Shown here piece by piece: positions 1-45,211 of a DNA stretch of 64,000 bases. Under the pieces are notes generated by a model. It did no database searches. It saw only the letters and a list, made by a program, of their open reading frames with translations, and had not been told where the DNA came from. The position numbers and the translations under genes are program-made. This stretch comes from Candidatus Porifericomitaceae bacterium (GTDB lineage Bacteria; Pseudomonadota; Gammaproteobacteria; Porifericomitales; Porifericomitaceae), in assembly GCA_965212005.1 (NCBI GenBank), contig OZ243038.1:1760096-1824095 (forward strand), in the 5' to 3' direction. The first letter of the stretch is position 1. Each line of letters opens with the position of its first letter.

Positions 1-2
1 CC

Positions 3-857
3 ACCTACGGAGTCGGCGAACTGATCGGCAGCGCGCTGGATCACGGCGTGCAGGAAATCATTATCGGCATTGGCGGTTCGGCCACCTGCGACGGTGGGGC
101 GGGCATGGCGCAGGCGCTGGGGGCGCGCTTTTATGACCGCCGGGGCGCCTGCATGGCCGCGGGCCTGTCGGGCGGCCAGCTGCGCCGCGTGCACCGCATT
201 GATGTCTCAGAGCTAGACCGGCGCTTGCGTAAATGCAGGTTGCGAGCCGCTTGTGACGTCGATAATGTGCTCGTTGGCCGATACGGAACGGCCCGCGTAT
301 TCGGGCCGCAAAAGGGCCTCACCGAGGTCGGAGTGGCGCGCCTGGACGCCAACTTGCGGCATTTGGCCGGTTTATACCGGCGTGATCTGAAACGGGACGT
401 CGCACGCAAGCCCAGAGGCGGCGCCGGGGGTGGACTGGGCGCCGGGCTGCTCGCTTTCACCGGCGCCAGGCTGCAAAGCGGCGTGGACATCGTGCTTAAA
501 GCGCTGGAACTGGAAAAGTATATGCGCCGCGCTGATCTGGTGATCACCGGCGAGGGCCGGATCGATTATCAGACAGCGTTCGGCAAGACCCCCGCCGGCG
601 TTGCCCGCCTGGCCCGAAAATGCCGCGTGCCGGTGGTCGCGATAGGCGGAACCCTGGCGGATGACACCGCCGGTATGTTCGGGAATAAGATCGATGCTCT
701 GGAATCGGCGGTGGCGCGAGACATGACGCTGGAGGAGGCACTCCGACATCCGAAGCGCTACCTGAAGAATGCCGCTGAGCGTGCTTTGCGCCTGATCAAA
801 GTGGGACAGCGGCTGTCGCGTCCGCGGCGGGGCGGGCCAGCCCGTGCCTCCGGATGA
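3..857 (+). CDS. glxK: Glycerate kinase, class I (GlxK/GarK family), 5'-truncated by window edge
   Basis: Frame open from nt 3 (TYGVGELI...); motifs IIIGIGGSATCDGGAG, FGPQKG, GAGGGLG, ITGEGRIDYQTAFGKTP. Confidence 0.93.
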   Translation, partial: TYGVGELIGSALDHGVQEIIIGIGGSATCDGGAGMAQALGARFYDRRGACMAAGLSGGQLRRVHRIDVSELDRRLRKCRLRAACDVDNVLVGRYGTARVFGPQKGLTEVGVARLDANLRHLAGLYRRDLKRDVARKPRGGAGGGLGAGLLAFTGARLQSGVDIVLKALELEKYMRRADLVITGEGRIDYQTAFGKTPAGVARLARKCRVPVVAIGGTLADDTAGMFGNKIDALESAVARDMTLEEALRHPKRYLKNAAERALRLIKVGQRLSRPRRGGPARASG

Positions 858-984: not shown

Positions 985-2052
985 ATGAAAGCACTGTGTG
1001 CCTGTCGTCTGCTGGCGTTGTCCCTGTTATGCTGGCCGATGCAAATACCTGCCTACCAGGTCGAGGATCTGTATACGGCCACTGTGGTAGTGTCGGATCA
1101 AGGCACGGCAGCCTATCGCCGGGGGCTGCAGCGGGCGCTGGAAGAGGTTTTGATCAAACTGAGTGCCGATCCGGATATTATCGGGCAGGCTGCGGCGCGC
1201 TCACTGCTGCTGCAGGCGGAAAGCCTGATGCAGAGTTACCACTACCGGACGGTGCCGCCCGCACCGGAAACGGAGTCCGCCTCCGCCGGCCCGGAGGCGC
1301 CCGGCTTTTTGCTTGAAGCGAGCTTTCAGGAGTCGGCGCTGACCAGGGCGTTGCAGTCGAACGGAGTGCCTTCATGGGGTCGGCAACGGCCCTTGTTACT
1401 GTTATGGGTGGTGCAGGCCGACCGCAACGGTAATAAGGTGATCCGGAACGCGGAGACGGATTCTCCGTTTCTCTCCGAACTGGAACAACAACTGCGGCGC
1501 CTCGGCCTGCCGTTTCTGTTTCCGCTGCTGGACCTGGAGGATGACCGTAATCTCAGTGCGGTGGAATTGTGGGCCGGCATTGAGGACCGGGTGCGGGAGG
1601 CATCCCGACGCTATCATGCCGATGCGGCGCTGACCGTGCGTCTGCCGCCTGCGGCGGCGTCGCCCCGGGAAGCGGTCTGGAGCCTGTATTTGAGGGAAGG
1701 GCGCCGGGAATGGAGCAGCGCGGGTCCGGCGCTGCTGCGTACCGGCATACAGTCCCTGTTGTCTGTGTTGAGGCAGGAGTATGGACGGCCCGGTGTGGCG
1801 GGCGAAGGAACGTTCGTTGAGTTGAACGTAACTGGGATTACGCATTTTGAGCGCTATCTGCGCGTGTTGCACCACCTGCTGAAATTGGACGCGGTGCACC
1901 AGGTACGGGTCCTTGAATTCCACGCGGATCGGGTGCGTTTTCGGCTCCTGACGCATTTGGGCGCTACGGCGGTGCACGGCGAGATCGGTCTGGGCAATGT
2001 GCTGCGCCTGGCGACTGGACCGGAGGCCGGCTGGTACCTTTTACTCCCGTAA
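985..2052 (+). CDS. DUF2066 domain-containing periplasmic protein
   Basis: Signal-peptide-like N-terminus from ATG 985, DLYTATVVV, ALEEVLIKLS, WGRQRPLLLLW, FPLLDLED; usual position upstream of hda. Confidence 0.8.
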   Translation: MKALCACRLLALSLLCWPMQIPAYQVEDLYTATVVVSDQGTAAYRRGLQRALEEVLIKLSADPDIIGQAAARSLLLQAESLMQSYHYRTVPPAPETESASAGPEAPGFLLEASFQESALTRALQSNGVPSWGRQRPLLLLWVVQADRNGNKVIRNAETDSPFLSELEQQLRRLGLPFLFPLLDLEDDRNLSAVELWAGIEDRVREASRRYHADAALTVRLPPAAASPREAVWSLYLREGRREWSSAGPALLRTGIQSLLSVLRQEYGRPGVAGEGTFVELNVTGITHFERYLRVLHHLLKLDAVHQVRVLEFHADRVRFRLLTHLGATAVHGEIGLGNVLRLATGPEAGWYLLLP

Positions 2053-2277
2053 CCCGTGGGGCTGGCCTGGCTTCATGATTACGTCCATCGAATGGCCTTC
2101 GCCGTCCGTCCGTTGCTGCTCGCCGGCGCAACTCTGCCGCCGTCATCGTGCGTATCAGCCGGACTGGGTGTATGCGCCAGGGCAAATAGGTTTCCCTGAC
2201 CGTGAGCCCCGCACGGTTCTCGGCGGCCCGGGGTCGCAGGTGATCCGAAGCCTGCCCGAATTCCGCACCGCCGGGTA

Positions 2278-3589
<1,312 letters not shown>

Positions 3590-3754
3590 TCAATACGCCT
3601 ATAATCTGGATTCTCTTATGATCCCCGGTCCCATTGCAATGTATAGCCGTGTCCGACCGGTCGTTTGCGTTACAGATCCCGGCCGGCATCGGCTGGTGCG
3701 CTCGTCATTCCGACTCGTGGCGCGGGTGCTTCCTCCAGGCGGTGTTTCTCCGCC

Positions 3755-4039
3755 GTGAAGCAGGGCGCACACTGCTACGTGTCCGGCCGGGTGCAGGGCG
3801 TATGCTTTCGTGCCTGTACCTGCTCCAGAGCCCGTGCATTAGGGCTGACTGGGTGGGTGCGCAATCTGCCGGACGGTCGAGTCGAGTTGCAGGCTTTCGG
3901 TGACGCTGAACCATTGGAACAACTGCGCAGTTGGCTGCGCCGCGGACCCGAGGCGGCCGAGGTACGGCAGTTGGACTGGCGCCCGATTGACTGCCAGCCA
4001 TACCCGGATTTCTCCATTTCCGTGCATCCGTCCCCCTGA
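3755..4039 (+). CDS. acyP: Acylphosphatase
   Basis: VSGRVQGVCFR and GWVRNLPDGRVE signatures; GTG 3755 chosen as start. Confidence 0.88.
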   Translation: MKQGAHCYVSGRVQGVCFRACTCSRARALGLTGWVRNLPDGRVELQAFGDAEPLEQLRSWLRRGPEAAEVRQLDWRPIDCQPYPDFSISVHPSP

Positions 4040-4073
4040 GCCTGCGCTGCCTGCCCCGGCGCGCCGGATCGGA

Positions 4074-5789
4074 TCAGTCGGTGTCCGCCGTTTTTTGCCG
4101 TATGAAGGCCGCTGCCTGATCCAGCGCGAGTTCTTGCGTGGTTTCCCCGGTGCGTGACCGGTATTCGATGATGCCGCGGTCCAGGCCGCGTTCGGCATAG
4201 ATAAACCAGTGCGGAATGCCAAGCAATTCGGCATCGTTGTACATGACACCGGGGCGTTCGCGGCGGTCATCCAGCAGCACCTCGATGCCTTGTGCCTGTA
4301 AAGCCGCGTACAAGACTTCCACCTGTGCGCGCAGCCGCTGGGATTTGTGCATGTTGATCGGGATGATCAGCAGTTGCCAGGGAGCAATGGCCGCAGGCCA
4401 GATGATGCCCCGGTCGTCGTGATTTTGTTCGATGGCAGCGGGCACCAGCCGGGAGACGCCAATTCCGTAGCAGCCCATAACGAGCTCCTGGGACTTTCCT
4501 TCCCGGTCCAGGCAAAGAGCCCGCATCGCGGCACTGTACCTGGTGCCTAATTGGAAGATATGCCCTACCTCAATGCCGCGGGATATATGCAGCTCTCCGT
4601 TGCCGTCCGGACTGCGGTCCCCTTCCACCACGTTGCGCAGGTCTGCCGTGCGCGGTTCCGGCAAGTCTCGTCCCCAGTTGACGCCGCACAGATGTTTCCC
4701 TTCCCGGTTGGCTCCGCAGACGAAATCCGACAGCTGGGCAGCGCCGTGATCCACGATGACTGGCAGCTTTAGCCCGAGCGGGCCGAGTGAGCCGGGACGG
4801 CAGCCAATGGCCTGTACAATTTGCTCTTCGCCGGCAAAGCACAGCGGTACCGCGGTTTCTTCCAGCCGTTCCGCCTTGAGCCGGTTCAGTTCGTGGTCTC
4901 CGCGCAGCACCAGCGCCACCGGTTCCCCGCGAGCGCCTTCAAGCAACAGGGTCTTTACGCAGCGGCGGGCGGGTACGCCGAGCAACGCGCTCACTTCTTC
5001 AATGCTGCCGCAGCCGGGCGTGTCCACTTCCCGTTTCGGTTCGACCGGCGCGCTACGCCGGCTGACGGGCGCCGCCGCCGGCGTCAGATCGATATTGGCG
5101 GCGTAGCTTCCGTCGGTGCTGTAGGCGATTCGATCTTCCCCGGAATCGGCGATTACGTGAAACTCGTGCGAAAGGTGTCCACCGATGTTGCCACTGTCTG
5201 CCCGCACGGCCCGAAAGCGCAGTTTCAGTCGCCGCAGAATGCGGCTGTAGGCTTCGTACATGTCCTGGTAACCCTGCTCCAGGGACGCCTTGTCCAGGTG
5301 GAAGGAGTAGGCGTCTTTCATCAGAAATTCCCGGGCCCGCATGATGCCGAAACGCGGTCGGATCTCGTCGCGGAACTTGCTTTGGATCTGATAGAGCGTC
5401 AGCGGCAGTTGCTTGTAGCTGCGCACTTCCCTGCGTACCAGGTCAGTAATGATTTCCTCGTGGGTGGGGCCTAAGCAAAAATCGCGCTGGTGCCGGTCGG
5501 TAAAGCGCAGCAACTCGGGCCCGTACTGCTGCCAGCGACCGGATTCCTGCCACAACTCTGCCGGTTGCACGCTGGGCAGCAGGATCTCCTGGCAGCCAAT
5601 CCGATCCATCTCCTGCCGAACAATCTGCTCTACCTTGCGTAAAACCCGCCAGCCCACCGGCAACCAGCCGTACACTCCGGCAGCGAAGCGCCGTACCAGG
5701 CCGGCGCGCAACATCAGCTGATGGCTGATGCTTTCCGCGTCCGACGGTGCTTCACGCAAAGTGGCCGACAACAGCTTGGAAAATCGCAC
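4074..5789 (-). CDS. proS: Proline--tRNA ligase
   Basis: SHQLMLRAG, LGPTHEE, KFRDEIRPRFG, REFLMKDAYSF, GIEVGHIFQLG, MGCYGIGVSR; editing insertion present. Confidence 0.98.
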   Translation of the reverse strand: MRFSKLLSATLREAPSDAESISHQLMLRAGLVRRFAAGVYGWLPVGWRVLRKVEQIVRQEMDRIGCQEILLPSVQPAELWQESGRWQQYGPELLRFTDRHQRDFCLGPTHEEIITDLVRREVRSYKQLPLTLYQIQSKFRDEIRPRFGIMRAREFLMKDAYSFHLDKASLEQGYQDMYEAYSRILRRLKLRFRAVRADSGNIGGHLSHEFHVIADSGEDRIAYSTDGSYAANIDLTPAAAPVSRRSAPVEPKREVDTPGCGSIEEVSALLGVPARRCVKTLLLEGARGEPVALVLRGDHELNRLKAERLEETAVPLCFAGEEQIVQAIGCRPGSLGPLGLKLPVIVDHGAAQLSDFVCGANREGKHLCGVNWGRDLPEPRTADLRNVVEGDRSPDGNGELHISRGIEVGHIFQLGTRYSAAMRALCLDREGKSQELVMGCYGIGVSRLVPAAIEQNHDDRGIIWPAAIAPWQLLIIPINMHKSQRLRAQVEVLYAALQAQGIEVLLDDRRERPGVMYNDAELLGIPHWFIYAERGLDRGIIEYRSRTGETTQELALDQAAAFIRQKTADTD

Positions 5790-6205
5790 TGAAAAACGTC
5801 TCCAGATTCCTTATATCCCGGTGGCGGGATGCCCGGCGGGAGATGGAATGCCCATTATATAGCTTCCGCGTTTGCTGCCCGCGCCGGCGGGTGAATGTTT
5901 CTGTGGTGATCACGGTGAGCGGGAATCAGGGGGAATGGCCCCGCATGGAGGATGGTTTCGGTCCCGGAATGTACAACTGCGCTGAAAATCCTCTTTTTGG
6001 GTGATTTTTTTTACCGTCGGGCGCCTTACAGTGCGGACATCTCTATGCTGAAAGCAGGATGATCCGGCGTCCCTCGTTGCCGTGGCGATGCCGGAGCGTA
6101 AAGGACGCCGTAGCAACGGAGGGACTGCCTTCCGGGCCGAGGGCGTTTGTCTGCGTACGGCATGGAGATCAATCACCCTGAGTTGAATGTACAGAGGATA
6201 GGATC

Positions 6206-6469
6206 GTGACGAAATTGAAAAAACTGCTGCTGGTACTGACCCTGATTTTCCCTTGCCTGGTGTGTGCGGAGGAGAAGATCAACATCAACACCGCCGACAA
6301 GGAGACCCTGATTATAATGCTGAACGGAGTCGGGGAATCCCGTGCGGAGGCAATCATCTCCTATCGGAAGGAACACGGCGGCTTTAAGTCGGTTGAAGAA
6401 CTGACCGAGATCCGCGGCATTGGTCCCCGCCTGGTGGAGAACAATCGGGATATTCTGTCGGTCGAATAG
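6206..6469 (+). CDS. comEA: ComEA-family helix-hairpin-helix DNA-binding protein
   Basis: Signal peptide then ININTA, LNGVGESRAEAII, GGFKSVEELTEIRGIG; GGA-rich RBS before GTG. Confidence 0.88.
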   Translation: MTKLKKLLLVLTLIFPCLVCAEEKININTADKETLIIMLNGVGESRAEAIISYRKEHGGFKSVEELTEIRGIGPRLVENNRDILSVE

Positions 6470-6772
6470 CCCGCGCGTTCGGCCGCCGCGGGACCATCAT
6501 CGTCCACCGTGGCCGCATCACGGCTTAGGCCGGCGGGCGTGGCTCCTCCCGCCCGCTGGCCGCTTTTTAAGCCGTGCCCGGATGGCCTGCGCGGTCTGAT
6601 GTAGTGCACCGTGACAGTTCAATGCTTGCGCCCCTGGCTGTGGTTTTGCATCCCGGCCCGTGCCGGGTTCCCGGGTGCGCGTTGTAACGGCAGGCAGGCC
6701 GGCACCCGATCAGCAGGTTCCGTGGCGCCGCGGTCTGCGCCCAAGTGGGCGCCGGCAAGGTCTGCGGGCGGT

Positions 6773-9616
6773 CTATCCGGTCCAGCCCAGGCCGGTCGAG
6801 ATGCAGTTTATCGACAGCAGCAGAGGCAACAGTTCGTCCCACTCCGAGCTTGTGCCGTTCGCACGCAGGTGGCGGATCAATTTGACCTGTTGCAGGCCGA
6901 CCTGGCGCAAGATCGGGCTGCGTCGATTGAGCTTGTGGAAGAATTTCGGAAAGCGGCGGGCCAGTTGCTCCTCGCCGGTGAGTTGCAGGATTACCTCGCA
7001 GGTGCGCCGGTATTCCTGCTCAATGCGGGAGTAGATGCGCTGGCGCGCCGGCGCGTTGGTGTACAGGTCTGCATAAGAGGCTGCCACTTCCAGATCAGTT
7101 AAGGACAGCACCTTTTCCGTTTCGTTGATGATGAGACGAAACAGGCGCGATTGTTCGAACATTTTCCGCAACAGGCGCTCACCTGAAGCACCCTGCGTTT
7201 GAATGAAGTTCCGCAATGCCGTGCCGACCCCGTACCAGCCGGTGATTTGATGTCGATTTTGGGTCCAGGCGAACACCCAGGGTATGGCGCGCAGATCATC
7301 CAGTGAGTCAGCCCCGAGGCGGCGCGGCGGACGCGAGCCGATCTTCATTGCCGCGAGTTCCTCTAAAGGACTGGCGGACCGTAAATAATCCAGTAGTTGT
7401 TCATCCTCGATCAGTTCGCGGTAAGCCGCGTGGGCTTGGGCCGAAAGTTGCTCCATTGCCTGGTCGAATTCCTGCCTGGGCTTCAGCTCTTCCTCGTCCA
7501 GGGACTTCAGGGAATGCTCCAGGACGCTGGCGGCGAGCAGTTCGAGCTGGTATTGGGCGGTGCCCTCGTTGGCGTACTTGGCGGAGACCACTTCCCCTTG
7601 CTCGGTGATGCGCATCATGCCCTGTATGGATCCGGGTGGCTGGGCGGCAATCGCACGACCGGTGTGCGCCCCGCCGCGACTTACCGAGCCGCCCCGGCCA
7701 TGGAAAAAAATGATCGGGATCCCGGCCGCCTGGCCCGTTTTCGTGATACGCGTCTGGGCCCGGCTCAACTCCCAGTTGGAGGTGAAGAAGCCGCCGTTCT
7801 TATTGGAGTCGGAGTAGCCGAGCATCACTTCCTGCCGTCCTCCCTGCAGTTCAATCGAGCGCCGCACCAGCGGCAACTGGAGCAGGGCTTCCATGATCGT
7901 GTGTGCCTGCTGCAGATCCTCAATGGACTCAAATAAAGGAATGATCGGCAGCCGGCAGCCTTGGACTCCCTCCGGATCGGAATATGCGCCGGCGTACTTG
8001 GCGAGCAGGTAGACTTCCAAGATGTCTTCCACCGAGTGCGTCATGCTCAAGATGAACCGGTGGATCGCCTCGCTGTCCAGTTGTTCTGCGTTGTTTCCGG
8101 CACTGATCCGGAACAGTTCCAGCGTCGAATTGGCGCCCTGGTCCAATTGGCCCGGATCGATCGAAATGCCTGCTGCCGGCAGCGGCTGATCCAGCGCGGC
8201 CAACAGCCAGGCCCGCCGCTGCTTTTGATCGGTCGGCACCGGCCGGTCCAGTGCGGACCCGATCGATTCCAGCGTATGGTGAATGACGTGGGCGTTCTCG
8301 CGCAGGTCCAGCGGCACCGTGCAGAAACGGAACGCTTCCACCTGCCTGCGTACCGGCGTGACCAGTTGCGTGCACAGCGTGTCGCAGCCGATCGCTTCCA
8401 GGGCCTGCTCCAGGGTTGCCAGGTCAGCAATCAATTCCTCCGCATCCTGGTAGCCGTTTGCCCTGGTGACTTGCCTTCCGGCCTGCTCATCGGTCCGGTC
8501 CTGGGCTTGCGGCAATTTATTCTGCAGCATGTACAGGTATTGGCGGAAGACTTCACCGGGATAACGTGCCTGCAGGTAGCCGTCGCGATCATGCGTTGCC
8601 CGCAGTTTCTGCAGTGCCTGGCAGAAGCCGTTCGGGAGCTGCACGGAACGTTCGGTGATGCTGATTTGCTTCAGCAGTTTCAGCAGTTGTTCCGGGTAGT
8701 GAGACAATGCCGCCTTTCGCGCCGCGTAAAGGGCCGAACGCGTTTCTGTGTTGGTTACATAAGGGTTTCCGTCCCGGTCACCGCCGATCCAGGAGCAAAA
8801 GCGCAGCAATGTCGGAACCTGGAAACGGTGTTCCGGGTAGCTTTGCCGTAGCGCCTCGTCCAGCCGACCCAGCGTGATCGGCAGGCTGTGAAAGAGCGTC
8901 TGGTCAAAGAAATGCAGTCCCCAGGCGACTTCTTGAGAGATGCTGGGTCGTTCCAGGTGCAACTCCCCGGTCAGCCACAACAGCTCGATCTCGTTACGCA
9001 GCTGGACAATGAAGCGTTGGCGTTCACGCGGTGTCCAGCGAGTGCCTTCCAGCCGGTACAGCAGCACGTAGATGCGCCGGTGGATCTCCAGCACCGTCAC
9101 GCGCTTGGCCTCGGTCGGGTGGGCGGTCAGGGTAGGCTGTACCAGGGCATTGTCCAGCAGTTGCTGAATGTCTGCGGTGCTGACGCCACGCTTGCGGGCG
9201 TCTGTAAACACTTGGGCAAAGGTGCCACGCACGTCTTGCGGTCCGCGGATCCGCTCTGCCTGGCGCCGTCGCCGCATGTCGGTGTTTTCCTCGGCGATAT
9301 TGAGCAATTGAAACCAGATGCTCCAAACTTGGATCAATTGAATCAATTGTGCGGCATCCTCTGCCGGTAGCTCCTGATCGGTAAAAATGGGCAGCAGGTC
9401 CGGGCTGCGCCGTCCGATCACCAGGCACAGTTGCTCGTGCAGCAGCCCGATCAGTTCTTCCGCATAGGTTGTTGCCGCGGTCTCGAACTGCTGTAGAGAG
9501 GGGAGGGTGTCAGTCTGCATCGTTTGCCGGAGCGCGGGCTCAATCGTTTCCCTGTCGAATCGCTCGATCCCTGAGTGGCCCTGGGCGTGTCTCGCTCCTG
9601 GTTCTTTCGCCGTCAT
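6773..9616 (-). CDS. ppc: Phosphoenolpyruvate carboxylase
   Basis: LTAHPTEAKR, SWIGGDRDGNP, IPLFESIEDL, QEVMLGYSDSNK, FHGRGGSVSRGG, TEQGE, LRAIPWVFAWTQ. Confidence 0.96.
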   Translation of the reverse strand: MTAKEPGARHAQGHSGIERFDRETIEPALRQTMQTDTLPSLQQFETAATTYAEELIGLLHEQLCLVIGRRSPDLLPIFTDQELPAEDAAQLIQLIQVWSIWFQLLNIAEENTDMRRRRQAERIRGPQDVRGTFAQVFTDARKRGVSTADIQQLLDNALVQPTLTAHPTEAKRVTVLEIHRRIYVLLYRLEGTRWTPRERQRFIVQLRNEIELLWLTGELHLERPSISQEVAWGLHFFDQTLFHSLPITLGRLDEALRQSYPEHRFQVPTLLRFCSWIGGDRDGNPYVTNTETRSALYAARKAALSHYPEQLLKLLKQISITERSVQLPNGFCQALQKLRATHDRDGYLQARYPGEVFRQYLYMLQNKLPQAQDRTDEQAGRQVTRANGYQDAEELIADLATLEQALEAIGCDTLCTQLVTPVRRQVEAFRFCTVPLDLRENAHVIHHTLESIGSALDRPVPTDQKQRRAWLLAALDQPLPAAGISIDPGQLDQGANSTLELFRISAGNNAEQLDSEAIHRFILSMTHSVEDILEVYLLAKYAGAYSDPEGVQGCRLPIIPLFESIEDLQQAHTIMEALLQLPLVRRSIELQGGRQEVMLGYSDSNKNGGFFTSNWELSRAQTRITKTGQAAGIPIIFFHGRGGSVSRGGAHTGRAIAAQPPGSIQGMMRITEQGEVVSAKYANEGTAQYQLELLAASVLEHSLKSLDEEELKPRQEFDQAMEQLSAQAHAAYRELIEDEQLLDYLRSASPLEELAAMKIGSRPPRRLGADSLDDLRAIPWVFAWTQNRHQITGWYGVGTALRNFIQTQGASGERLLRKMFEQSRLFRLIINETEKVLSLTDLEVAASYADLYTNAPARQRIYSRIEQEYRRTCEVILQLTGEEQLARRFPKFFHKLNRRSPILRQVGLQQVKLIRHLRANGTSSEWDELLPLLLSINCISTGLGWTG

Positions 9617-9743
9617 CAGATGCTGCTGCGTTTGTCTGTCGCCACCATTGAGCTTTCGGTCACGGAGATCCGTGTCGTTCCCCGTTCCCGCCTAATGCGT
9701 GGTAGGCGGTGGGCTGCTGACGGGTACACGGGCCGGCGGCGGA

Positions 9744-10715
9744 TCATGCGACCCGGTCAGGTGGTTCTTCTCCGTCAAAGAAGGTCTGTACGTTGTCGAT
9801 GGCACGCAATCCCATCGCGACCCGGGTCTCCAACGAAGCGCTGCCCAAATGGGGCAGCAGAACCGCGTTTTCCAGCTGCGTCAGTTCCGGCGCGACGTCA
9901 GGCTCCCGTTCATAGACGTCCATGCCGGCCCCGGCGATACGGCCCTCCCTGAGCAGCTGGGTCAAAGCTTTTTCATCCACCACGTCGCCGCGCGAGGTAT
10001 TGATCAGGAAGGCTCCCGGTTTCATCAGGTTCAGGCGATCGGCATTGAGCAGGTGGTGGGTTTCCGCTCCGCCCGGGCAATGCAGGGAGACAAAGTCGGC
10101 TTGCGGCAACAGCTCTTCCAGGGTGGCGCAGGCGCGGGCGTTGAATTCGGTGCTTGTCTGCGGCGGGGGAGGGAAGGGATCATGGAACAGGATTTGCATG
10201 CCGAAGCCGAAATATGCCCGGCGCGCCACTGCCCGGGCAATGCGACCGAAACCGACCAGGCCCAGTTTTTTGCCGCTGACTTTTGTGCCCAGCATGTGGG
10301 TAGGTCGCCAGCCCGTCCAGGTACCGCTGCGCAGTTGGCGTTCTCCCTCTGCGCTTCGGCGGGCCACTGAAAGCAGCAGGATCATGGCGATGTCCGCCGT
10401 GCAGTCGGTGAGCACGTCCGGCGTGTTGCTGACTACAATGCCGGCCGCTTTGGCTGCCTCCATATCGATGTGGTTGAAGCCAACGCCGAAATTGCCGAGG
10501 ATGCGTACGCGCCGCGACGGCACTTGCAGCACTTCGGCGGTGATTTTGTCGGATACGGTCGGACACAGCGCATCGGCGGTTTGCATCGCTTCCTTGAGCT
10601 GCTCGGTGCTCATCGGTTGATCGTCTTTGTTTAACCTGACGTCAAACAATTCCATGGCCCGTTCCTCCGCTGGCTCGGGCCAGCGCCGGGTAATGATGAC
10701 TTTGGATTTGTTCAT
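9744..10715 (-). CDS. D-glycerate dehydrogenase / hydroxypyruvate-glyoxylate reductase (D-2-hydroxyacid dehydrogenase)
   Basis: NFGVGFNHID, NTPDVLT, GFGRIA, SLHCP, INTSRGDVVDE, DVYERE, LPHLGSA; lies in serine-cycle cluster. Confidence 0.88.
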   Translation of the reverse strand: MNKSKVIITRRWPEPAEERAMELFDVRLNKDDQPMSTEQLKEAMQTADALCPTVSDKITAEVLQVPSRRVRILGNFGVGFNHIDMEAAKAAGIVVSNTPDVLTDCTADIAMILLLSVARRSAEGERQLRSGTWTGWRPTHMLGTKVSGKKLGLVGFGRIARAVARRAYFGFGMQILFHDPFPPPPQTSTEFNARACATLEELLPQADFVSLHCPGGAETHHLLNADRLNLMKPGAFLINTSRGDVVDEKALTQLLREGRIAGAGMDVYEREPDVAPELTQLENAVLLPHLGSASLETRVAMGLRAIDNVQTFFDGEEPPDRVA

Positions 10716-10876
10716 TATTACTTCGTCTCCTTAATATGGAAAAGGGCTGTTGCGCCTTTTTCCGGTTTTGCCCTCCACGGTCCGGGTTCCGGGCGTTGCC
10801 GGGGGAGGCACTGGTTCCTCGGTCGCGCCGGCTCGCTGTATCTGCCTGCGGCCCCGGTGACGATCAGGCGAGCCGT

Positions 10877-11761
10877 TTAACGAGCTAACACTTCGGCAAC
10901 GGTTTCGCCGATCCGCGCCGGCGTGGAGGCGACCCGCACCCCGCATTCCTGTAGGACCCCAACCTTCTCCTTCGCACTTTCTCCGTAGGCGGAAATGATC
11001 GCGCCGGCGTGTCCCATGCGGCGTCCCCTGGGCGCCGTCAGGCCGGCAATGTAGCCGATGACCGGCTTGCTCAGGTGCTCCCTGGCAAACAGCGCGGCTT
11101 CCGTTTCCTGGGGCCCGCCGATCTCTCCGATCATCACGATCGCCTTGGTTTCATCGTCTCGTTCGAACAGTTCCAGCATATTGAGGAAAGAACTTCCGTT
11201 AATCGGGTCGCCGCCGATGCCGACGCTGGTGGAAATGCCGATGCCGAGCGCCTTCATCTGCGCGGCGGCTTCATAGCCCAGGGTGCCGGAGCGGCTGACC
11301 ACGCCTACCTGTCCGGGCATGTAGATATGTCCAGGCATGATTCCCAGCATGGCTTTGCCGGGACTGATGGTGCCGGCGCAATTGGGCCCGGTCAGGATCA
11401 TTTTTTCTTCCTTGCGGTAGCGCCGCATGTAGCGTTTGACCCGGATCATGTCGTGGGCCGGAATGCCGTCTGTGATCGCTACGCAATACTTCAGTTTCGC
11501 GTCCGCCGCTTCCATAATCGAGTCTGCGGCGAAAGGGGCCGGCACAAAGATAATGCTGGCTTCGGCGCCGGTTTCCTCTTTTGCTTCCTTTACCGTGTTG
11601 AATACCGGCAGGTTCAGGTGTGTGGTGCCTCCTTTCCCCGGTGTTACGCCGCCGACTATCCGGCTGCCGTACTCGCTCATCTCGGTCGCGTGGAAGGTTC
11701 CAATCTGCCCGGTAAAGCCCTGGATCAGGATCTTGGTGTCTTTGTGAATCAGTATCGCCAT
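10877..11761 (-). CDS. mtkB: Malate--CoA ligase (malate thiokinase) alpha subunit, SucD-like
   Basis: QGFTGQIGTFH, GGVTPGKGG, ITDGIPAHDMIRVKRYMRRY (MtkB-like), GPNCAG, MGHAGA phospho-His; adjacent to mcl. Confidence 0.87.
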   Translation of the reverse strand: MAILIHKDTKILIQGFTGQIGTFHATEMSEYGSRIVGGVTPGKGGTTHLNLPVFNTVKEAKEETGAEASIIFVPAPFAADSIMEAADAKLKYCVAITDGIPAHDMIRVKRYMRRYRKEEKMILTGPNCAGTISPGKAMLGIMPGHIYMPGQVGVVSRSGTLGYEAAAQMKALGIGISTSVGIGGDPINGSSFLNMLELFERDDETKAIVMIGEIGGPQETEAALFAREHLSKPVIGYIAGLTAPRGRRMGHAGAIISAYGESAKEKVGVLQECGVRVASTPARIGETVAEVLAR

Positions 11762-11797
11762 GGTTCGGGTGCGCCTTGCTTTGTCTGTGCGGCGCGT

Positions 11798-12973
11798 TTA
11801 GTGGTCGGTGGCCTGCTTCCAGGCGGCAACTACCTTGTTGGCTGCTTCTTCCAGGGTGTCTGCCATGATCAGCGGCAGGCCGCTTTCCTTCAGGATCTGC
11901 TTTCCCTTTTCCACGTTGGTACCGGAGAGCCGGACTACCAGCGGAATCTGCACCTCGATCTTGCTCACTGCCTGCACAATGCCTTCCGCCACCCAGTCAC
12001 AGCGGTTGATGCCGGCAAAGATATTGATCAGCATCGCTTCCACGCTTTTATCGGAAAGGACGAGGTTGAAAGCCTTTTGCACCCGTTCCGGCGAAGCACC
12101 ACCGCCGATGTCGAGGAAGTTCGCCGGCTCGCCGCCGGCGTGCTTGATCATGTCCATCGTGGCCATGGCCAGTCCCGCGCCGTTGATCATGCAGCCGATA
12201 TTGCCTTCCAGTCCTACATAGTTCAGTCCCCGATCGTTGGCGTGCATCTCCCGCGGAGTCTCCTGGCTCTTGTCCCGCAGTTCGCAGATGCTGGGTCGGC
12301 GGAACAGTGCGTTGTCGTCGAAAGACATCTTGGCGTCCAGTGCGATGAGCCGGCCGTCGTTGGTCACGCCCAGCGGGTTGATCTCGACCATGGTGGCGTC
12401 AAGGTCACGAAGCGCCCGGTAACAGCCCAGGAAGCAAGTGACCGCCTGGCTGATCAGGGATTTGTCCAGGTTCAACTGAAACGCGATTTCCCTGGCTTCG
12501 AAAGACTGCATCCCGACAGCCGGTTCGATGGCCAGGCGAATAATCGAGTCCGGCTGCCGGGTGGCGATCTCCTCTACCTCCATGCCGCCCGCGGTGGACG
12601 CGATTGCCACCACGCGCTCCATGCTCCGGTCCAGCACCAGGCCGAGGTAGTACTCGTGCTGAAGGTTCATTGCGGCCTCAATATAGATGCGGTGGACGAT
12701 TCTCCCCTGCGGGCCGGTCTGCGGAGTCACCAGCCGTTTGCCCAGCAGGTCATTGGCTGTTTCCCAAATACCGTCGTCGTGTTCGCAGATGGAGATGCCT
12801 CCGGCTTTGCCGCGCGCGCCGGAATGAATTTGAGCCTTGACCATCCAGCGCTCGCCCCCGATCTCGCGCGCCCGGTAAACCGCCTGCTCGGGACTGTAGG
12901 CCAGCCCTCCGACGGGAACCGCCACGCCAAACTTCGACAGCAGCTCTTTTGCCTGATACTCGTGTATTTCCAC
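11798..12973 (-). CDS. mtkA: Malate--CoA ligase (malate thiokinase) beta subunit, SucC-like
   Basis: [58 protein letters not shown] (Mtk-type). Confidence 0.88.
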
Positions 12974-13028
12974 GCTAACTAACTCCCTGCGGCATGCGTC
13001 GCTCCAGGCCTGCCTTGAACGCCCGCCG

Positions 13029-13979
13029 CTATGCAGCCGCGCTTGTACTGGTGATCAGGTTCGCCTGCCGCACGACGTTGCGGGCCATCCGCTCCGAGGC
13101 GGCGTCGATCATTTTGCCGTCGATTTGGGCGGCGCCACGGCCCTCCCTGGCTGCCTGTTCCAGGGCTTGCAGGATGCGCCTTGCCCGGTCAATCTCGGCC
13201 GGCGGGGGTGACATGACTTCATTGGCCAGTTCGATCTGACTGGGGTGGATGGCCCATTTGCCCTCATACCCCAGCGTGGCAACGCGCCGGGCGGCGGCCC
13301 GGTAGCCTTCGGGGTCCTTGAAGTCGCCGAAGGGACCGTCGATCGCGCGTAATCCGTAAGCACGGCAGGCGATCAGCATGCGTTGCAAGCTGGCGTGCCA
13401 TTGATCTCCCGGGTAATCCGGATTCAACCCACCGATGTTAGTGGTGCGGGCGCGGCAACTGGCGGCAAAGTCGGCCACGCCGAAATGCAGTGCCTCCAGG
13501 CGTTTGCTGCAGCAGGCAATCGCTTCCACCTGGGCCATGCCCAGCGCGGTTTCGATTAATGCCTCCAGCCCGATCGGGCGTTCGACCCCGACGGCCTGCT
13601 CCACTTGGGTGAGGATGCACTCTACCGTATAGATATCGCTGGCAGTGCCCGCCTTGGGGATGAGGATGGTGTCGAGATGGTCCCCGGCTTGCTCCACGAC
13701 GTCCACTAAGTCGCGGTACATGTAGTGGGTATCGAGGCCGTTGATGCGCACACTGACGGTTTTATTATGTGCCTGCCAGTCAATCTCCCGCAGGGCCTGG
13801 ATCACCTGCTTGCGGGCGGTTTCCTTGTCATCCGGCGCCACTGCGTCCTCTAAGTCGAGAAAAACATAGTCTGCGGCGCTCTCGGCCGCCTTACGGAACA
13901 GGCTGGGGTTGGAACCGGGCACAGCCAGCTCGCTGCGCTGCAGGCGGGTCTGTACCGGTGTGTACTGGGTGAAACTCAT
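13029..13979 (-). CDS. mcl: Malyl-CoA lyase (CitE superfamily)
   Basis: MSFT...[56 protein letters not shown]. Confidence 0.92.
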
Positions 13980-13994
13980 GGCCTGGAGTCCGGG

Positions 13995-15176
13995 TCAGTT
14001 GCGTACCTGGGAGGCAGTCTGGCACAGGTATTTTTGCGCGGCGGCCACTCCGCTGCCGAGTTCCACCGGCAAGCCCAGGTCCTTCATGGCCATTTCCGCC
14101 CCGGCGATCGGGCTCAGCAGCATCAGTTCGTTGAGTTCGCCCAGGTGACCGATGCGGAAGGCTTTCCCGGCAATGTCCCCTAAGCTGACGCTGAGCGCCA
14201 GGTTGTAGTGCCGATAGGCGTGGCGCACGACGGCGTTGCCGTCAAAGCCTTCCGGCACGTAAATAGCGCTGACCGTGTCCGAGTGCCACTCGGGACCCCG
14301 GGCCACCAGTTTCAGCCCCCAGGCCTGCACGGCTTTGCGCACCGCGGTCGCCAGACGGGTATGCCGCCGGAAGACGTTTTCCAGTCCCTCTTCCAGGATC
14401 ATATCCACTGCCGCCCGCAGACCGCGCATCAGCGTGGTGGCGGGCGTATAGGGGAAGTAGCCGTTGTCGTTGGTTTTCATCATGTCCTCAAAGGAAAAAT
14501 AAGTGCGAGGCAGGCGAGCGCTCTTCATTGCCTCCAGGGCCTTCGGACTGGCGGCCAGGATGCCTAGCCCGGTGGGCAGCATCATGCCCTTTTGCGAGCC
14601 GCTGATCGCCAGGTCCACGCCCCATTCATCCATGCGGAAATCAATGCTGGCAATCGAACTGATGCCGTCCACGTACAGCATCGCCGGGTGGTTGGCGGCA
14701 TCCATCGCCTGGCGTACCTGGAGGATGTTGCTGGTTACGCCGGTGGCGGTTTCGTTGTGCGTGGCGAATACGCCCTTGATCTTCTTTTCCTTGTCTGCCC
14801 GGAGCAGTTCCGCATACTGTTCAACCGGAACTCCCTTGCCCCAGTCCACTTTGATGGCGTGCACGTCCAACCCGTGCCGCTGGCACAGATCGATCCACAG
14901 GTTGCTGAAATGACCGAAGCCCGACATCAATACTTTGTCGCCCGGAGACAAGGTATTGCTTACGGCAGCCTCCCAGGCCCCGGTGCCGGAAGACGGAAAG
15001 ATGAATATGCGCCCGTCCCGGGTCTTAAAGATTTTTTTCAGATCCCGAAACAGGGGCAGCGTGAATTCAGGGAAGTCCGTAGCGCGCATGTCCTCCTGGG
15101 GGCTTTGCATCGCACGCAGCACCCGTTCAGGAATATTGGTTGGGCCGGGAATAAAAAGAAAGTTTCGACCTGGCAT
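13995..15176 (-). CDS. sgaA: Serine--glyoxylate aminotransferase (class V PLP)
   Basis: MPGRNFLFIPGPTN, FPSSGTGAWEAA, HNETATGV, MDEWGVD, SGSQKG (PLP Lys), FPYTP; RBS GAGG before ATG 15176. Confidence 0.92.
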   Translation of the reverse strand: MPGRNFLFIPGPTNIPERVLRAMQSPQEDMRATDFPEFTLPLFRDLKKIFKTRDGRIFIFPSSGTGAWEAAVSNTLSPGDKVLMSGFGHFSNLWIDLCQRHGLDVHAIKVDWGKGVPVEQYAELLRADKEKKIKGVFATHNETATGVTSNILQVRQAMDAANHPAMLYVDGISSIASIDFRMDEWGVDLAISGSQKGMMLPTGLGILAASPKALEAMKSARLPRTYFSFEDMMKTNDNGYFPYTPATTLMRGLRAAVDMILEEGLENVFRRHTRLATAVRKAVQAWGLKLVARGPEWHSDTVSAIYVPEGFDGNAVVRHAYRHYNLALSVSLGDIAGKAFRIGHLGELNELMLLSPIAGAEMAMKDLGLPVELGSGVAAAQKYLCQTASQVRN

Positions 15177-15637
15177 TGGAATCCTCGTTGTTGATTGCGC
15201 GACCAACCGGTATTTCGCGTCGCTTGATTAGGTTATTGCTATGAAGCCCGACACTGGTCCGACTGGATCAGAGTTTGCTTCTGACTGGCGGGCACTTCAT
15301 CTCCTGCCGTGACGCATGGTCATGGGCCGGATTGCCCATCGGTGCTGCCAGCCCCTTCTGTTACCTGGCAGCTGGATGACTACAGAGATTCTTAAACTGT
15401 CCCGCAGACCCTTTACGTTTTTGCTCTTAAAACGGGTACTTTGATACGCCGTTTGGATTTATTCTAGCACGGAAGATCACCCGCAGGTAGTCTGTATCCT
15501 GTCGGTCTGGGCTGCGGGAGCGCACTACCGCTATTATCCGTTGATAACTAAAGCATTTTCGCCTCCTTTGCGGGAACAAACGCGGCCCCGGGCCGCTTCC
15601 CCTGCCGGGCGGCTCAAGGGGGTCCGGGCCGGGGAAA

Positions 15638-17167
15638 TCAGCGACGAACACGCCTTCCCGGTCTGAACCGCGCCAGCCCGCACAACACCGCCGACAGCAG
15701 CGCGATGGCCCAGTCCCCCCAGCGAACATAGGGCGTTGTGCCCTGAAAGAGCGGTAACGAGGCGCGCAGCGTCTGCGGCTGGAATGGGCGGCTTTGTTGC
15801 AGCAGGCGTCCCTTGGGATCGATCACGGCACTGATGCCGCTGTTAGTGGCGCGCAGCACGTATCGACCGGTCTCCAGGGCCCGCAGCCGGGTAATCTCCA
15901 AGTGCTGATGAGGACCGATGGAGTCTCCGAACCAGCCATCGTTGCTGACGTTAACCAGCAGCTTCGCCTGCGGCAGGGCGGCGATGAGTTCATTGCCGAA
16001 CACGGCTTCATAGCAGATTGCGGTGCCGATGCTGCCGAAGCCGAGTTGCAGCAGCGGTGGTCTTTCGCCGGGGCTGAATTGCGGTAGTGGCACTTGCAGG
16101 AACCGCATCACCGGCAGCAGCAGTTTGGGCAGCGGAACGTATTCGCCAAAAGGCACCAGGTGCCGCTTGTGGTAGACCCCCCCTCCCTGCCCCAGGTAAA
16201 GCAAGCTGTTATATAGGAGTTGCCTCTCTGCGTCCCATACCGGGATGCCCAGCAGGAATTCACTGCCGGCCTGTGTCGCCCATTCCTGCAGTTCATCCAG
16301 CAAGGGTTGTACTCGGTGCTGCACTGTTGGCAGCACAGATTCCGGCCATATCAGCAGATCCACTCCCCAGTGTGGCTCGGAGAGAGCGATGTAGTGCTGC
16401 GTGGTCTGCTCCAGTTGTTCCGTGTTCTGATCGAGCCGCAGAGGCAGTGCGCCCTGGATCAGCGCAACGGAGATCGACCGCGGCAGCGGCTGTGTCCAGT
16501 CATGGCGGCGCGCCCACTCTCCGCCGCCCCAGAGCAGCAGGCCCAGCAGCAGCAGCGGCAGGCAGTGCTTTCGGTGGCGGTACAGCCCGACCAGCAGTGC
16601 GGCGCTAACTACCAGCGCCCAGCTGCTGCCGTGCACGCCCAGCACGCTGGCCCAGCCGCCTAATGCGGAATCCACCTGGCTGTACCCCAGGCTGAGCCAG
16701 GGGAATCCGCTTAGCAGCCGGGCCCGCAGCAGTTCGGCCAGGACCCAGAGCGCGGGAGCCGCCAGCAGCAATGAGCGCAGCTCCTGGCGCGCAAACCAGC
16801 GCTGGTACAGCCATCCGGCCAGGGCCGGGTACAGGGCCAGCACTGCGGCCATCAGCAGGCCGAGTGCGTGCGCCAGCGCCGGATGCAGGCCGCCGTAGAG
16901 CTGCATGCTGATCTGCACCCAGCTGAGTCCGATGCTGAACATGCCGATGCCAAACAGCCAGCCGCGGAGCAGAGCGCGGCGTGCGCTGCCCTGCTGCCAC
17001 AGTGCCAGCAGCAGCGCCAGCAAGACCGGCGCCAGCATCCACAATCCGTAGGGAGCAAAGGCCAGCGGCATCATGGCGCCTGCCCCAAGGGCCGCCAGGT
17101 CGTACCCGGCTGCTTTCCAGTCTTTCACCAGGCGGTGCGATTCAAGGCCCTGCTCAAGGCCCTGCAA
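15638..17167 (-). CDS. lnt: Apolipoprotein N-acyltransferase
   Basis: Multi-TM N-terminus, GFPWLSLGYSQ, WPES, YHKRHLVPFGEY, ICYE, NDGWFG, RATNSGIS. Confidence 0.95.
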   Translation of the reverse strand: MQGLEQGLESHRLVKDWKAAGYDLAALGAGAMMPLAFAPYGLWMLAPVLLALLLALWQQGSARRALLRGWLFGIGMFSIGLSWVQISMQLYGGLHPALAHALGLLMAAVLALYPALAGWLYQRWFARQELRSLLLAAPALWVLAELLRARLLSGFPWLSLGYSQVDSALGGWASVLGVHGSSWALVVSAALLVGLYRHRKHCLPLLLLGLLLWGGGEWARRHDWTQPLPRSISVALIQGALPLRLDQNTEQLEQTTQHYIALSEPHWGVDLLIWPESVLPTVQHRVQPLLDELQEWATQAGSEFLLGIPVWDAERQLLYNSLLYLGQGGGVYHKRHLVPFGEYVPLPKLLLPVMRFLQVPLPQFSPGERPPLLQLGFGSIGTAICYEAVFGNELIAALPQAKLLVNVSNDGWFGDSIGPHQHLEITRLRALETGRYVLRATNSGISAVIDPKGRLLQQSRPFQPQTLRASLPLFQGTTPYVRWGDWAIALLSAVLCGLARFRPGRRVRR

Positions 17168-27377: not shown

Positions 27378-28145
27378 TTAAAACCAGGAGCGAATGCCCG
27401 CGACGAATGAAAGATGCTCGTCCTGCGCGCCTTCGGCGCGTATCCAGTCGGCAGTTTCCCCGAACGCGCGGGTCCAGGACACGCCGATGTAAGGCGCAAA
27501 CTGCCGACTGAACTCATAGCGCAGGCGCAATTCCACGTCAGCCAGGTTCAGTCCGGACCCGATGTGAAGCGCGCGATCATCCGACAGCGCCGCGTTGAGT
27601 TCGATGCGCGGTTGCAGGATTAGGCGCTGTGTCAGCAGCAACTCGTATTCGGTTTCCAGGCGTGCCGACGCCTTTCCCTGTTCGCTGAAGAAAAGCGCGG
27701 CATCGACTTCCAGCCACTGTGGTGCTAGTCCCTGCAGTCCGATCGCCGCGTAACTGCGGGACGGGCGAGGCCTGAAGTTTTGCCGGGCCCCGATTTGGAA
27801 ATCCCAGAACGAGTGTATCGCATGGCTGTAGAGCAGCTGCAGTTCCAACTCTTCCGGACGGTTGCGTTCATCCAGGAATTCCCCGTCGGTCTTTACCCAC
27901 AGCTTTTGGACGTCGCCCCCGAGCCATGCCTGGCCTTCCCAGGCCAGAGTGGAATCTTCATGGTCGGAGTGAGTTTCCAGGCGCTCCAGCAGGACCAGCG
28001 ACGTGGTCTGTCCACCGTGGCTTTTATACAGCGCCCGCCGAGCCGCCTCCATGGTATCCGGATCATAATGGGCGTTGGCCGCTTGTTGTGCGCTCACCAC
28101 TGACGGGAACAAGGTGAGTGAGGCGAGCAGCGCCCGCCCGTTCAT
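27378..28145 (-). CDS. copB: Copper resistance protein B (outer membrane)
   Basis: LERLE, AWLGGD.QKLW, LYSHAI..FWD, GLQGLAP, LLTQRLILQP, LRYEFSRQFAPYIG, terminal WF; ATG overlaps copA stop. Confidence 0.9.
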   Translation of the reverse strand: MNGRALLASLTLFPSVVSAQQAANAHYDPDTMEAARRALYKSHGGQTTSLVLLERLETHSDHEDSTLAWEGQAWLGGDVQKLWVKTDGEFLDERNRPEELELQLLYSHAIHSFWDFQIGARQNFRPRPSRSYAAIGLQGLAPQWLEVDAALFFSEQGKASARLETEYELLLTQRLILQPRIELNAALSDDRALHIGSGLNLADVELRLRYEFSRQFAPYIGVSWTRAFGETADWIRAEGAQDEHLSFVAGIRSWF

Positions 28146-29841: not shown

Positions 29842-30197
29842 CTTTTCCTGTCCATCCATCCGTGATGCAATCCGTGATGACCCGATCCGGGAGTTTCAGG
29901 GATCCTCACATATATTAGACCGGGAACGGTCCCAATCTTTCCCTGCCATCCGTATGTTATCGGATGCCTGCCCTGTAAATTATAGAGTGACCAGGGGGGA
30001 AATGGGAGCGACGTCGAGGCTGACGCAAGAGAAGGCGACGGCTTGTGACCGGCGATCATCATGGACGGCGCTTGCCCAGCGCCTTATTCCCGCGGGCCAC
30101 CGTGATGCCCCCGCCAACATGACAGGGCCATACCGGTTTACGCAGGCACCTGCTGCGCCTCGCAATAGCTCAGTGCCGGGGGTACGACGTCATGGGG

Positions 30198-44190: not shown

Positions 44191-44216
44191 GCGGGCTGCC
44201 GGATCGGTCCAGAACC

Positions 44217-45195: not shown

Positions 45196-45211
45196 GCAGG
45201 GTCTTAGGAGC

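Follow-up and report, generated by a model that had tools for sequence, protein, structure and literature searches.

Does a row of serine-cycle genes in a gammaproteobacterium mark a whole pathway for the assimilation of one-carbon compounds, and was this row of genes borrowed? The question is raised by a 64,000-nucleotide stretch of the genome of a Candidatus Porifericomitaceae bacterium (hereafter the window), in which positions 6773-15176 of the minus strand are filled by six co-oriented open reading frames (ORFs) in the order aminotransferase-mcl-mtkA-mtkB-2-hydroxyacid dehydrogenase-ppc. The source genome (G000) is a single contig of 2,535,744 bp, estimated to be 98% complete, and the window corresponds to C1:1760096-1824095; the prefix C1: denotes contig coordinates, and all other coordinates are those of the window.

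An earlier reading of these letters without database searches (the sequence-only reading) had proposed a serine-cycle operon sgaA-mcl-mtkA-mtkB-dehydrogenase-ppc that assimilates the carbon of methylene-tetrahydrofolate (methylene-THF) in a gammaproteobacterial host. We found that the six genes run exactly from the ppc stop codon to the ATG of the aminotransferase gene, that the class assigned to the genome agrees with its closest relatives of known name and that the gene set of the whole genome supports the proposed function. Our results suggest with good confidence that an isocitrate-lyase-positive serine cycle has its central operon at this locus, and that this cycle is the only recognisable one-carbon assimilation route of the bacterium. 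This reading is based on gene presence, on family identity and on alternative pathways that were not found, and from it we infer substrate specificities, the direction of flux, co-transcription and growth on one-carbon compounds. The pathway and its biochemistry are already known; our observations concern its occurrence in a less usual bacterial class.

Identity of the operon enzymes

The beta subunit of malate thiokinase, MtkA, matches the NCBIfam equivalog of the malate--coenzyme A (CoA) ligase (NF010647, 'malate--CoA ligase subunit beta') with 682.5 bits, above the cut-off of 604. The alpha subunit, MtkB, presents CoA_binding and Ligase_CoA domains and reaches 435.6 bits with the SucD model, NCBIfam offering only SucD models for the alpha subunit and none for MtkB; it is 74-82% identical to the MtkB of the operons of 10 relatives. 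The genome contains a second SucCD-like pair at C1:2120001-2122030, which is 50-51% identical to the operon pair by local tblastn (50% between MtkA and the genome's own SucC at C1:2120879-2122030, and 51% between MtkB and its own SucD). On the Mtk model, the SucC-like copy reaches 518.9 bits and remains below the cut-off. In a tree of 86 Mtk and five SucC rows, the two groups were separated with a Shimodaira-Hasegawa-like approximate likelihood ratio test (SH-aLRT) support of 98, and the second copy fell on the SucC side together with the SucC of relatives; this tree and the Ppc tree discussed below are quick reconstructions with SH-aLRT as their only support. Judged by model scores and tree position, the operon pair is a paralogue set distinct from the predicted SucCD of the tricarboxylic acid cycle in the same genome. 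The claim of the sequence-only reading that the operon genes are specific to Mtk rather than to SucCD thus holds at the level of the family model and of the tree, and mtkAB is not the sole sucCD-like copy of the genome, since a separate sucCD is present. A word of caution is in order for other genomes, where mtkAB may be mislabelled as sucCD.

The lyase is, at the family level, a predicted malyl-CoA lyase: it matches Pfam HpcH_HpaI (143.5 bits), its best match in the PDB is 5ugr ('Malyl-CoA lyase/beta-methylmalyl-CoA lyase', 406.5 bits) and the next one is 4l9y ('Malyl-CoA lyase', 315 bits). Ppc matches Pfam PEPcase with 782 bits and the NCBIfam model with 756.6 bits, under the cut-off of 815, and its gene is the only ppc found in the genome (single tblastn match). 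The aminotransferase clearly falls by sequence within the SgaA/BhcA family, with serine as its predicted amino donor; the best structural match is 6pk1 ('Serine--glyoxylate aminotransferase', 454.7 bits). As a separate observation, a second gene of the HpcH/HpaI aldolase/citrate-lyase family (260 amino acids, 80 bits) is found at 60979-61758 on the plus strand, after an alpha/beta hydrolase gene; a tblastn search with Mcl at E<=1e-5 did not return it.

The dehydrogenase matches Pfam 2-Hacid_dh_C (199 bits) as well as the NCBIfam models for glyoxylate reductase (301 bits) and GhrB (233 bits), both under their cut-offs. Archaeal glyoxylate reductases and 1gdh ('D-glycerate dehydrogenase', 226.9 bits) can be aligned with it from end to end, and the alignment to 1gdh shows that it keeps the RGD, ExEP and PHxGS stretches, which we take to hold the catalytic Arg, Glu and His. 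Its place among the operon genes and its resemblance to 1gdh lead us to predict that this enzyme serves as the hydroxypyruvate reductase. No homologue of the Methylobacterium-type HprA above 32% identity was found in the genome. The same type of dehydrogenase recurs, with 50-67% identity, in clusters of Ruegeria, Labrenzia and Pseudonocardia and in the gammaproteobacterial-type operons.

One-carbon genes of the genome and the proposed carbon flow

Several of the genes that the sequence-only reading had named for a search (glyA, mtdA, xoxF and the isocitrate lyase gene) were found in the genome, and the marker of the ethylmalonyl-CoA pathway, the crotonyl-CoA carboxylase/reductase Ccr, was not (best score 60.6 bits, cut-off 378.55). 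Both glyoxylate regeneration (isocitrate lyase) and one-carbon oxidation (XoxF, Fae, Mch and FhcA/B) are therefore represented. The genome encodes two alcohol dehydrogenases of the pyrroloquinoline quinone (PQQ) type. One of them is XoxF-like (684.8 bits, above the cut-off), has 6dam ('Lanthanide-dependent methanol dehydrogenase XoxF', 907.6 bits) as its best match in the PDB and contains a DYD motif, which is presumably linked to lanthanide binding. A tetrahydromethanopterin (H4MPT) module at C1:176-190 kb comprises FhcA, FhcB, Mch, an H4MPT glutamate ligase, Fae and a probable H4MPT-linked one-carbon transfer protein. The ftfL gene (866 bits) is located 14 kb before the window. A single Mpt_N (MtdA-like) gene, whose product is 48.6% identical to that of the gene in the mtdA position of a Methylorubrum cluster, and an FTCD_C (fch) gene with 46% identity to its Methylorubrum counterpart are transcribed divergently; the two genes of this genome lie at C1:2373599-2375568.

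The remaining steps of the cycle also have candidates. The genome presents glyA, for serine hydroxymethyltransferase (577 bits), an isocitrate lyase equivalog (775 bits, cut-off 562) and one gene of the Ldh_1_C/Mdh family (143 bits) with a predicted malate dehydrogenase role. A class-I glycerate kinase (Pfam Gly_kinase, 476.8 bits for the whole gene and 321.5 bits for the part in the window) fills the glycerate kinase step where the MOFRL type was not found, in any of the four genomes available for the family. Genes for 2-oxoglutarate dehydrogenase and phaA/phaB are present as well. The searches of the genome did not find hexulose-phosphate synthase (HPS; best score 20.5 bits, cut-off 200), the RuBisCO large subunit or malate synthase. 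The family of ammonia monooxygenase and PmoA was not found in the genome either, in a search whose control also matched nowhere, so that this result says little on methanotrophy. The bacterium thus constitutes a complete-genome example of a gammaproteobacterium with a whole predicted serine cycle and in which neither the ribulose monophosphate (RuMP) nor the Calvin-Benson-Bassham pathway was found, which runs against the textbook split into type I (RuMP) and type II (serine).

A sarcosine-oxidase-alpha-family gene (854 amino acids; TIGR01372 618.8 bits, under the cut-off of 1164) spans both ends of the contig (C1:2535687-2535744 and C1:1-2507), which is consistent with a circular chromosome. 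It is adjoined by a soxB-family gene (475.5 bits, under the cut-off of 529), a small ORF and an NADPH:quinone reductase gene, and a GCV_T scan of the genome returned only the sarcosine-oxidase-family genes and one weak match (34 bits, C1:545531). This cluster may provide methylene-THF from an N-methyl amino acid. Among the substrates that had been proposed from the window alone, only methanol finds direct gene support, in XoxF (no search by name was aimed at DMSP, betaine or methylamine genes); an N-methyl amino acid is weakly supported by the sarcosine-oxidase-family cluster. The second PQQ alcohol dehydrogenase, at C1:2494282-2496673, reaches 450.8 bits, under the methanol/ethanol-family cut-off of 480; the ORF after it is dihaem-cytochrome-like and matches PdsA weakly.

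The proposed carbon flow is the following. Methanol would be oxidized to formaldehyde by XoxF, formaldehyde would be converted to formate by Fae and the H4MPT enzymes (the MtdA-like dehydrogenase, Mch and Fhc) and formate to methylene-THF via FtfL, Fch and MtdA; the sarcosine-oxidase-family enzyme may feed methylene-THF directly. GlyA would combine methylene-THF with glycine to form serine, and the operon aminotransferase would transfer the amino group of serine to glyoxylate, which would yield hydroxypyruvate and glycine. The operon dehydrogenase would then reduce hydroxypyruvate to glycerate, from which the nearby glycerate kinase and a presumed enolase would produce phosphoenolpyruvate (PEP). 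Ppc would convert PEP to oxaloacetate and Mdh oxaloacetate to malate, which MtkAB would activate to malyl-CoA and Mcl would cleave into glyoxylate and acetyl-CoA. Finally, acetyl-CoA could re-enter through citrate and isocitrate by presumed enzymes, and isocitrate lyase would regenerate glyoxylate, a role that fits the presence of isocitrate lyase without malate synthase.

Distribution, history and alternative explanations

We scanned species-representative genomes with MtkA, which matched 600 stretches (596 relatives), and the best 80 loci (designated by L numbers) were examined. The closest among these best 80 belong to five metagenome-assembled genomes (MAGs) titled 'Gammaproteobacteria bacterium', with an MtkA identity of 73-76%, and the full six-gene order was present in 5 of the 80, all in MAGs titled Gammaproteobacteria. 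A second comparison included the source genome and 40 relatives (n=41), 37 of which belong to the same class outside the family and none to another family of the same order. In this set, G000-G003 represent four genera of the family, with genomes of 1.5-2.5 Mb, and G017 and G018 represent two other families of the same class. MtkA was found above the cut-off in 6 of the 41 genomes, namely in all four family genera and in G017 and G018. The six genes keep their order in 11 of 11 of these operons (the window, G001, G002, G003, G017, G018 and the five Gammaproteobacteria-titled MAGs). Fae is present in all six MtkA-positive genomes and in 9 of the 41 overall. All four family genomes present MtkA, XoxF-like, Fch, isocitrate lyase, Gly_kinase and Ldh_1_C matches, and none of the four has HPS above the cut-off or RuBisCO.

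The flanks of the operon are not conserved overall between carriers. However, proS adjoins it in both G000 and G001, and a neighbourhood of the folC-dedD-cvpA-purF-metZ type is common to G017 and G018, with its cvpA-purF part in L023 and a metZ-type gene in L051; the G018 locus is 82-86% identical in DNA to L023, from a Gammaproteobacteria-titled MAG, which links the class of these genomes to that title. Several neighbours are of metabolic relevance. The ftfL gene is found within 20 kb of the operon in three carriers (immediately next to ppc in G017, 3 kb upstream in G002 and at about 20 kb in G000), and aceK and icd adjoin it in L051, a Gammaproteobacteria-labelled MAG (positions 2705-5764 of that locus). 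These neighbours fit a role linked to one-carbon metabolism and isocitrate lyase.

Several observations weigh against a one-carbon serine cycle run from a single operon. The best structural matches of the dehydrogenase are glyoxylate reductases, and the aminotransferase, with 624 bits, scores nearer to the BhcA cut-off of 650 than do the aminotransferases of recognised serine-cycle clusters (551-599). The Mpt_N-family gene is single, and therefore the H4MPT and THF branches would need to share one enzyme. Gaps of 161 nucleotides before the dehydrogenase gene and of 127 nucleotides before ppc interrupt the row, so that a single transcript of six genes is only presumed. Lastly, closely related mtkAB clusters occur in marine Alphaproteobacteria (Ruegeria and Labrenzia), which are known here from genes alone, and the enzyme set is therefore not proof of one-carbon growth.

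In one alternative, the operon mainly serves the two-carbon and glyoxylate metabolism of a heterotroph. Mcl and MtkAB would then work towards malate and replace malate synthase beside isocitrate lyase (glyoxylate and acetyl-CoA to malyl-CoA, then to malate and ATP), while the aminotransferase and the dehydrogenase would handle glyoxylate or glycolate. The presence of isocitrate lyase without malate synthase does leave room for Mcl and Mtk to run towards malate on two-carbon compounds. The glyoxylate reductases among the best matches of the dehydrogenase point in the same direction, as do 2-oxoglutarate dehydrogenase and phaA/phaB, which indicate that a multicarbon metabolism exists, and the nearest outside group of MtkA, which is composed of marine Alphaproteobacteria and Acidimicrobiia. 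However, this alternative assigns no function to the ppc of the operon or to the nearby glycerate kinase, and it does not explain why Fae accompanies MtkA in every positive genome, nor why XoxF, ftfL and mtdA-fch occur in a genome in which no other one-carbon assimilation route was found. A two-carbon role would be compatible with the serine cycle and competes with it only as the primary function, and as such we consider it unlikely.

The history of the operon was analyzed by comparing trees and sequence composition. The sequence-only reading had raised the possibility of horizontal acquisition, and one could imagine a recent import from an alphaproteobacterial methylotroph into a gammaproteobacterium otherwise devoid of the pathway. 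The distribution is indeed patchy, with MtkA above the cut-off in only two of the 37 same-class genomes outside the family; the flanking genes differ between family members, and MtkA is no less similar to its counterparts in other families (74-75% identity) than to those inside the family (71-77%). However, the GC-content of the operon (60.9%) equals that of its flanking genes and is close to that of the genome (59.0%), and the GC-content at third codon positions of its six genes (0.73-0.78) is the same as that of proS, lnt, corC and miaB. The operon is also present in all four family genera, although the identity of their ProS to that of the window's genome is only 61-68%. ProS identity to other families is 53-67% and the operon proteins are 69-82% identical, which indicates that the lineages are deep and that the operon proteins are better conserved than ProS.

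Both trees further separate the operon from those of classical methylotrophs. In the MtkA tree, the 11 operon carriers form one clade (SH-aLRT 87), whose sister (84) consists of marine Alphaproteobacteria and Acidimicrobiia, and this assemblage is apart from the clade of Methylobacterium, Methylocystis and Methyloversatilis (97) and from Methylococcales. The Ppc tree, built from 42 rows after removal of truncated genes, reproduces this inner grouping: the family is represented by three rows that fall together (91), and their sister group (100) is L051, L021 and L022. With G017 and L023, all these rows compose one clade (93), to which the Ppc of classical methylotroph operons, the Methylobacterium/Methylocystis/Methyloversatilis clade (100), is the sister (97). 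The grouping of the three family Ppc rows and the adjacency of proS in two genera also argue against a recent import. These comparisons do not support a recent horizontal acquisition, which appears very unlikely, and an ancient transfer among gammaproteobacterial lineages is possible. We propose, more tentatively and as a view that may well prove too broad, that the operon marks a genomically undescribed, deep-branching gammaproteobacterial lineage with small genomes (1.5-2.5 Mb; one family with four genera, alone in its order among the genomes compared). In this lineage, an isocitrate-lyase-positive serine cycle without malate synthase would be the sole one-carbon assimilation route, and the six-gene operon would be old in Gammaproteobacteria, where at least two other families would have inherited it from the same ancestor, and would not have been borrowed recently from Alphaproteobacteria.

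The aminotransferase finally raises the question of whether it could be a BhcA-type aspartate-glyoxylate enzyme, the locus then feeding a glyoxylate assimilation of the beta-hydroxyaspartate type. Its best NCBIfam model is indeed BhcA, with 624.3 bits close to the cut-off of 650. Yet the aminotransferases of accepted serine-cycle clusters also match only this model (551 and 554 bits for Methylorubrum/Methylobacterium, 591 for Methyloversatilis, 599 for Hyphomicrobium), as do those of two Gammaproteobacteria-labelled MAGs (615 bits each), and because all of them score under 650, the model does not separate SgaA from BhcA here. With the best solved structure named as a serine--glyoxylate aminotransferase and no bhcBCD-like genes among the operon neighbours (only the neighbourhood was searched for bhcBCD, not the whole genome), this alternative is highly improbable.

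Layout of the locus and comparison with known systems

The coordinates of the operon, of its flanks and of other features are given in Table 1. From the aminotransferase gene to ppc, the intergenic gaps measure 15, 55, 36, 161 and 127 nucleotides. The aminotransferase ORF was listed with a TTG start at 15206 (13995..15206, 403 amino acids), but the ATG at 15176 is the likelier start because a GAGGA-like site lies 7 nucleotides upstream and the NCBIfam alignment starts there. As had been noted from the sequence alone, the operon is inserted between a comEA-like gene and lnt, which are outside the pathway. Further out, proS follows past one flank, and corC, ybeY, phoH and a miaB-type radical-SAM (UPF0004/TRAM) gene past the opposite one.

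Table 1. Positions of the operon genes and of other features (window coordinates unless a genome is named)
Feature	Coordinates	Strand	Remark
Class-V aminotransferase, serine-glyoxylate / aspartate-glyoxylate (SgaA/BhcA) family	13995..15176	-	393 aa from ATG
Malyl-CoA lyase Mcl	13029..13979	-	316 aa
Malate thiokinase (malate--CoA ligase) beta subunit MtkA	11798..12973	-	391 aa
Malate thiokinase alpha subunit MtkB	10877..11761	-	294 aa
D-2-hydroxyacid dehydrogenase, glyoxylate/hydroxypyruvate reductase (GhrB / D-glycerate dehydrogenase) type	9744..10715	-	323 aa
PEP carboxylase Ppc	6773..9616	-	947 aa
Glycerate kinase class I, 3' part	1..857	+	whole gene C1:1759774-1760895; about 6 kb from operon
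ComEA-like helix-hairpin-helix ORF	6206-6466	+	flank; Pfam HHH_3 70.8 bits
lnt, apolipoprotein N-acyltransferase	15638..17167	-	flank; TIGR00546 300 bits
ftfL in G017	G017:C66 (L130) 3482-5251		near operon
ftfL in G002	G002:C16 (L128) 1850-3520		near operon
16S rRNA gene	39214-40757		
Porin_O_P family gene	41375-42655		rRNA-operon insert; 211 bits
Unknown ORF	42621-43298		rRNA-operon insert
Glutathione S-transferase gene	43558-44190		rRNA-operon insert
23S rRNA gene	45476-48405		
5S rRNA gene	48504-48619		

A terminator-like hairpin (15596..15582) is located downstream of lnt. The scan of 5800-15800 for promoters and terminators was uninformative (two promoter-like sites relative to 2.7 expected, and 13 terminator-like sites relative to 11.0 in shuffles), and no conserved block was detected upstream of the aminotransferase gene when four family members were aligned (mean column identity 51%). 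Two ORFs were rejected. The first (15427..15729, 100 amino acids), in the interval between the operon and lnt, was taken as spurious, with no family match and an overlap with the end of lnt. The second (11009-12982, plus strand, 657 amino acids) is antisense to mtkA and mtkB and has no Pfam match although it is longer than either gene; it is most likely an artefact of high G+C, able to mislead gene calling based on ORF length.

Other features of the window were also observed. The only rRNA operon of the genome occupies 39214-48619 (16S, 23S and the insert were each found once by local blastn). About 4.0 kb of protein-coding DNA on the same strand interrupts it between tRNA-Ile(GAT) at 41127-41204 and tRNA-Ala(TGC) at 45212-45287. 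A copper-resistance pair (27378-29856, minus strand) encodes a CopA-like multicopper oxidase of 497 amino acids and a CopB of 280 amino acids. A ccm cluster (50119-57292, plus strand) comprises an ATP-binding cassette ATPase, CcmB, a CcmC-like protein, CcmF, a thiol-disulfide redoxin, CcmH and a CycH-like protein.

A close counterpart of the operon is the Methylobacterium/Methylorubrum cluster (sga-hpr-mtdA-fch-mtkA-mtkB-ppc-mcl; L053, L056, L061, L066 and others), which presents the same enzyme families and the same inferred pathway. Identities to this cluster are 58-59% for the aminotransferase, 63-65% for MtkA, 68-71% for MtkB, 49% for Ppc and 61% for Mcl. However, the gene order is different, and mtdA and fch are outside the operon in the window's genome. 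The dehydrogenase is only 30% identical to the hpr of the Methylorubrum cluster and belongs to another subfamily, its best model being glyoxylate reductase rather than PRK06487. Methylobacterium regenerates glyoxylate by the ethylmalonyl-CoA pathway, unlike the window's genome, where isocitrate lyase is predicted to do so. In Hyphomicrobium, Chthonobacter and Pseudonocardia (L040-L048, L055, L057 and L090), agt-mcl-mtkA-mtkB(-hpr) clusters occur whose first four or five genes follow the same order as the operon, and L055, L057 and L090 carry a dehydrogenase of the window's type (56-57% identical), but none of these clusters has ppc directly downstream.

Within Gammaproteobacteria, methylotrophs with the serine pathway have been described from culture. 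Methylohalomonas lacus and Methylonatrum kenyense reportedly assimilate carbon by this route. These two methylotrophs come from hypersaline lakes (Sorokin et al. 2007), and as of 2022 they had no available genomes (PMC8877833). The genome paper on Methylococcus capsulatus Bath (PMC517821) describes RuMP as the main route, with a partial serine pathway in which mcl and mtkAB-like genes are present but a candidate for PEP carboxylase is lacking. This agrees with the statement of the sequence-only reading on partial gammaproteobacterial serine pathways that lack this enzyme. The window's genome resembles M. capsulatus, as described there, in being gammaproteobacterial with mcl and mtkAB-like genes, and differs from it in that HPS was not found and ppc is inside the operon. 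The MtkA rows of Methylococcales (L049 and L060) fall inside the Mtk side of our tree. Our literature search, which mostly did not cover subscription journals, found no description of the six-gene operon form in Gammaproteobacteria, and this conserved aminotransferase-mcl-mtkA-mtkB-dehydrogenase-ppc form could be used to recognise such organisms in metagenomes.

Other incomplete serine cycles have been described. The marine group E01-9C-26, with estimated genomes of about 5 Mb, is credited with only 'several' serine-cycle enzymes (PMC6003095), and for these two reasons it was rejected as a match for the window's genome. A mussel symbiont is credited with a serine cycle without hydroxypyruvate reductase (PMC10199937). 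USC-gamma MAGs described in 2026 have no hps/phi and no Rubisco but possess aceA, and their serine cycle was judged incomplete, with hpr and the step from glycerate to 2-phosphoglycerate wanting (PMC13333085). Our results call for caution in such cases, as hydroxypyruvate may be reduced by a dehydrogenase from a subfamily that pathway tools might overlook. The GhrB/D-glycerate-dehydrogenase-type enzyme of the operon may be the hydroxypyruvate reductase that was reported 'missing' in USC-gamma MAGs and other gammaproteobacterial genomes whose serine cycles are otherwise complete.

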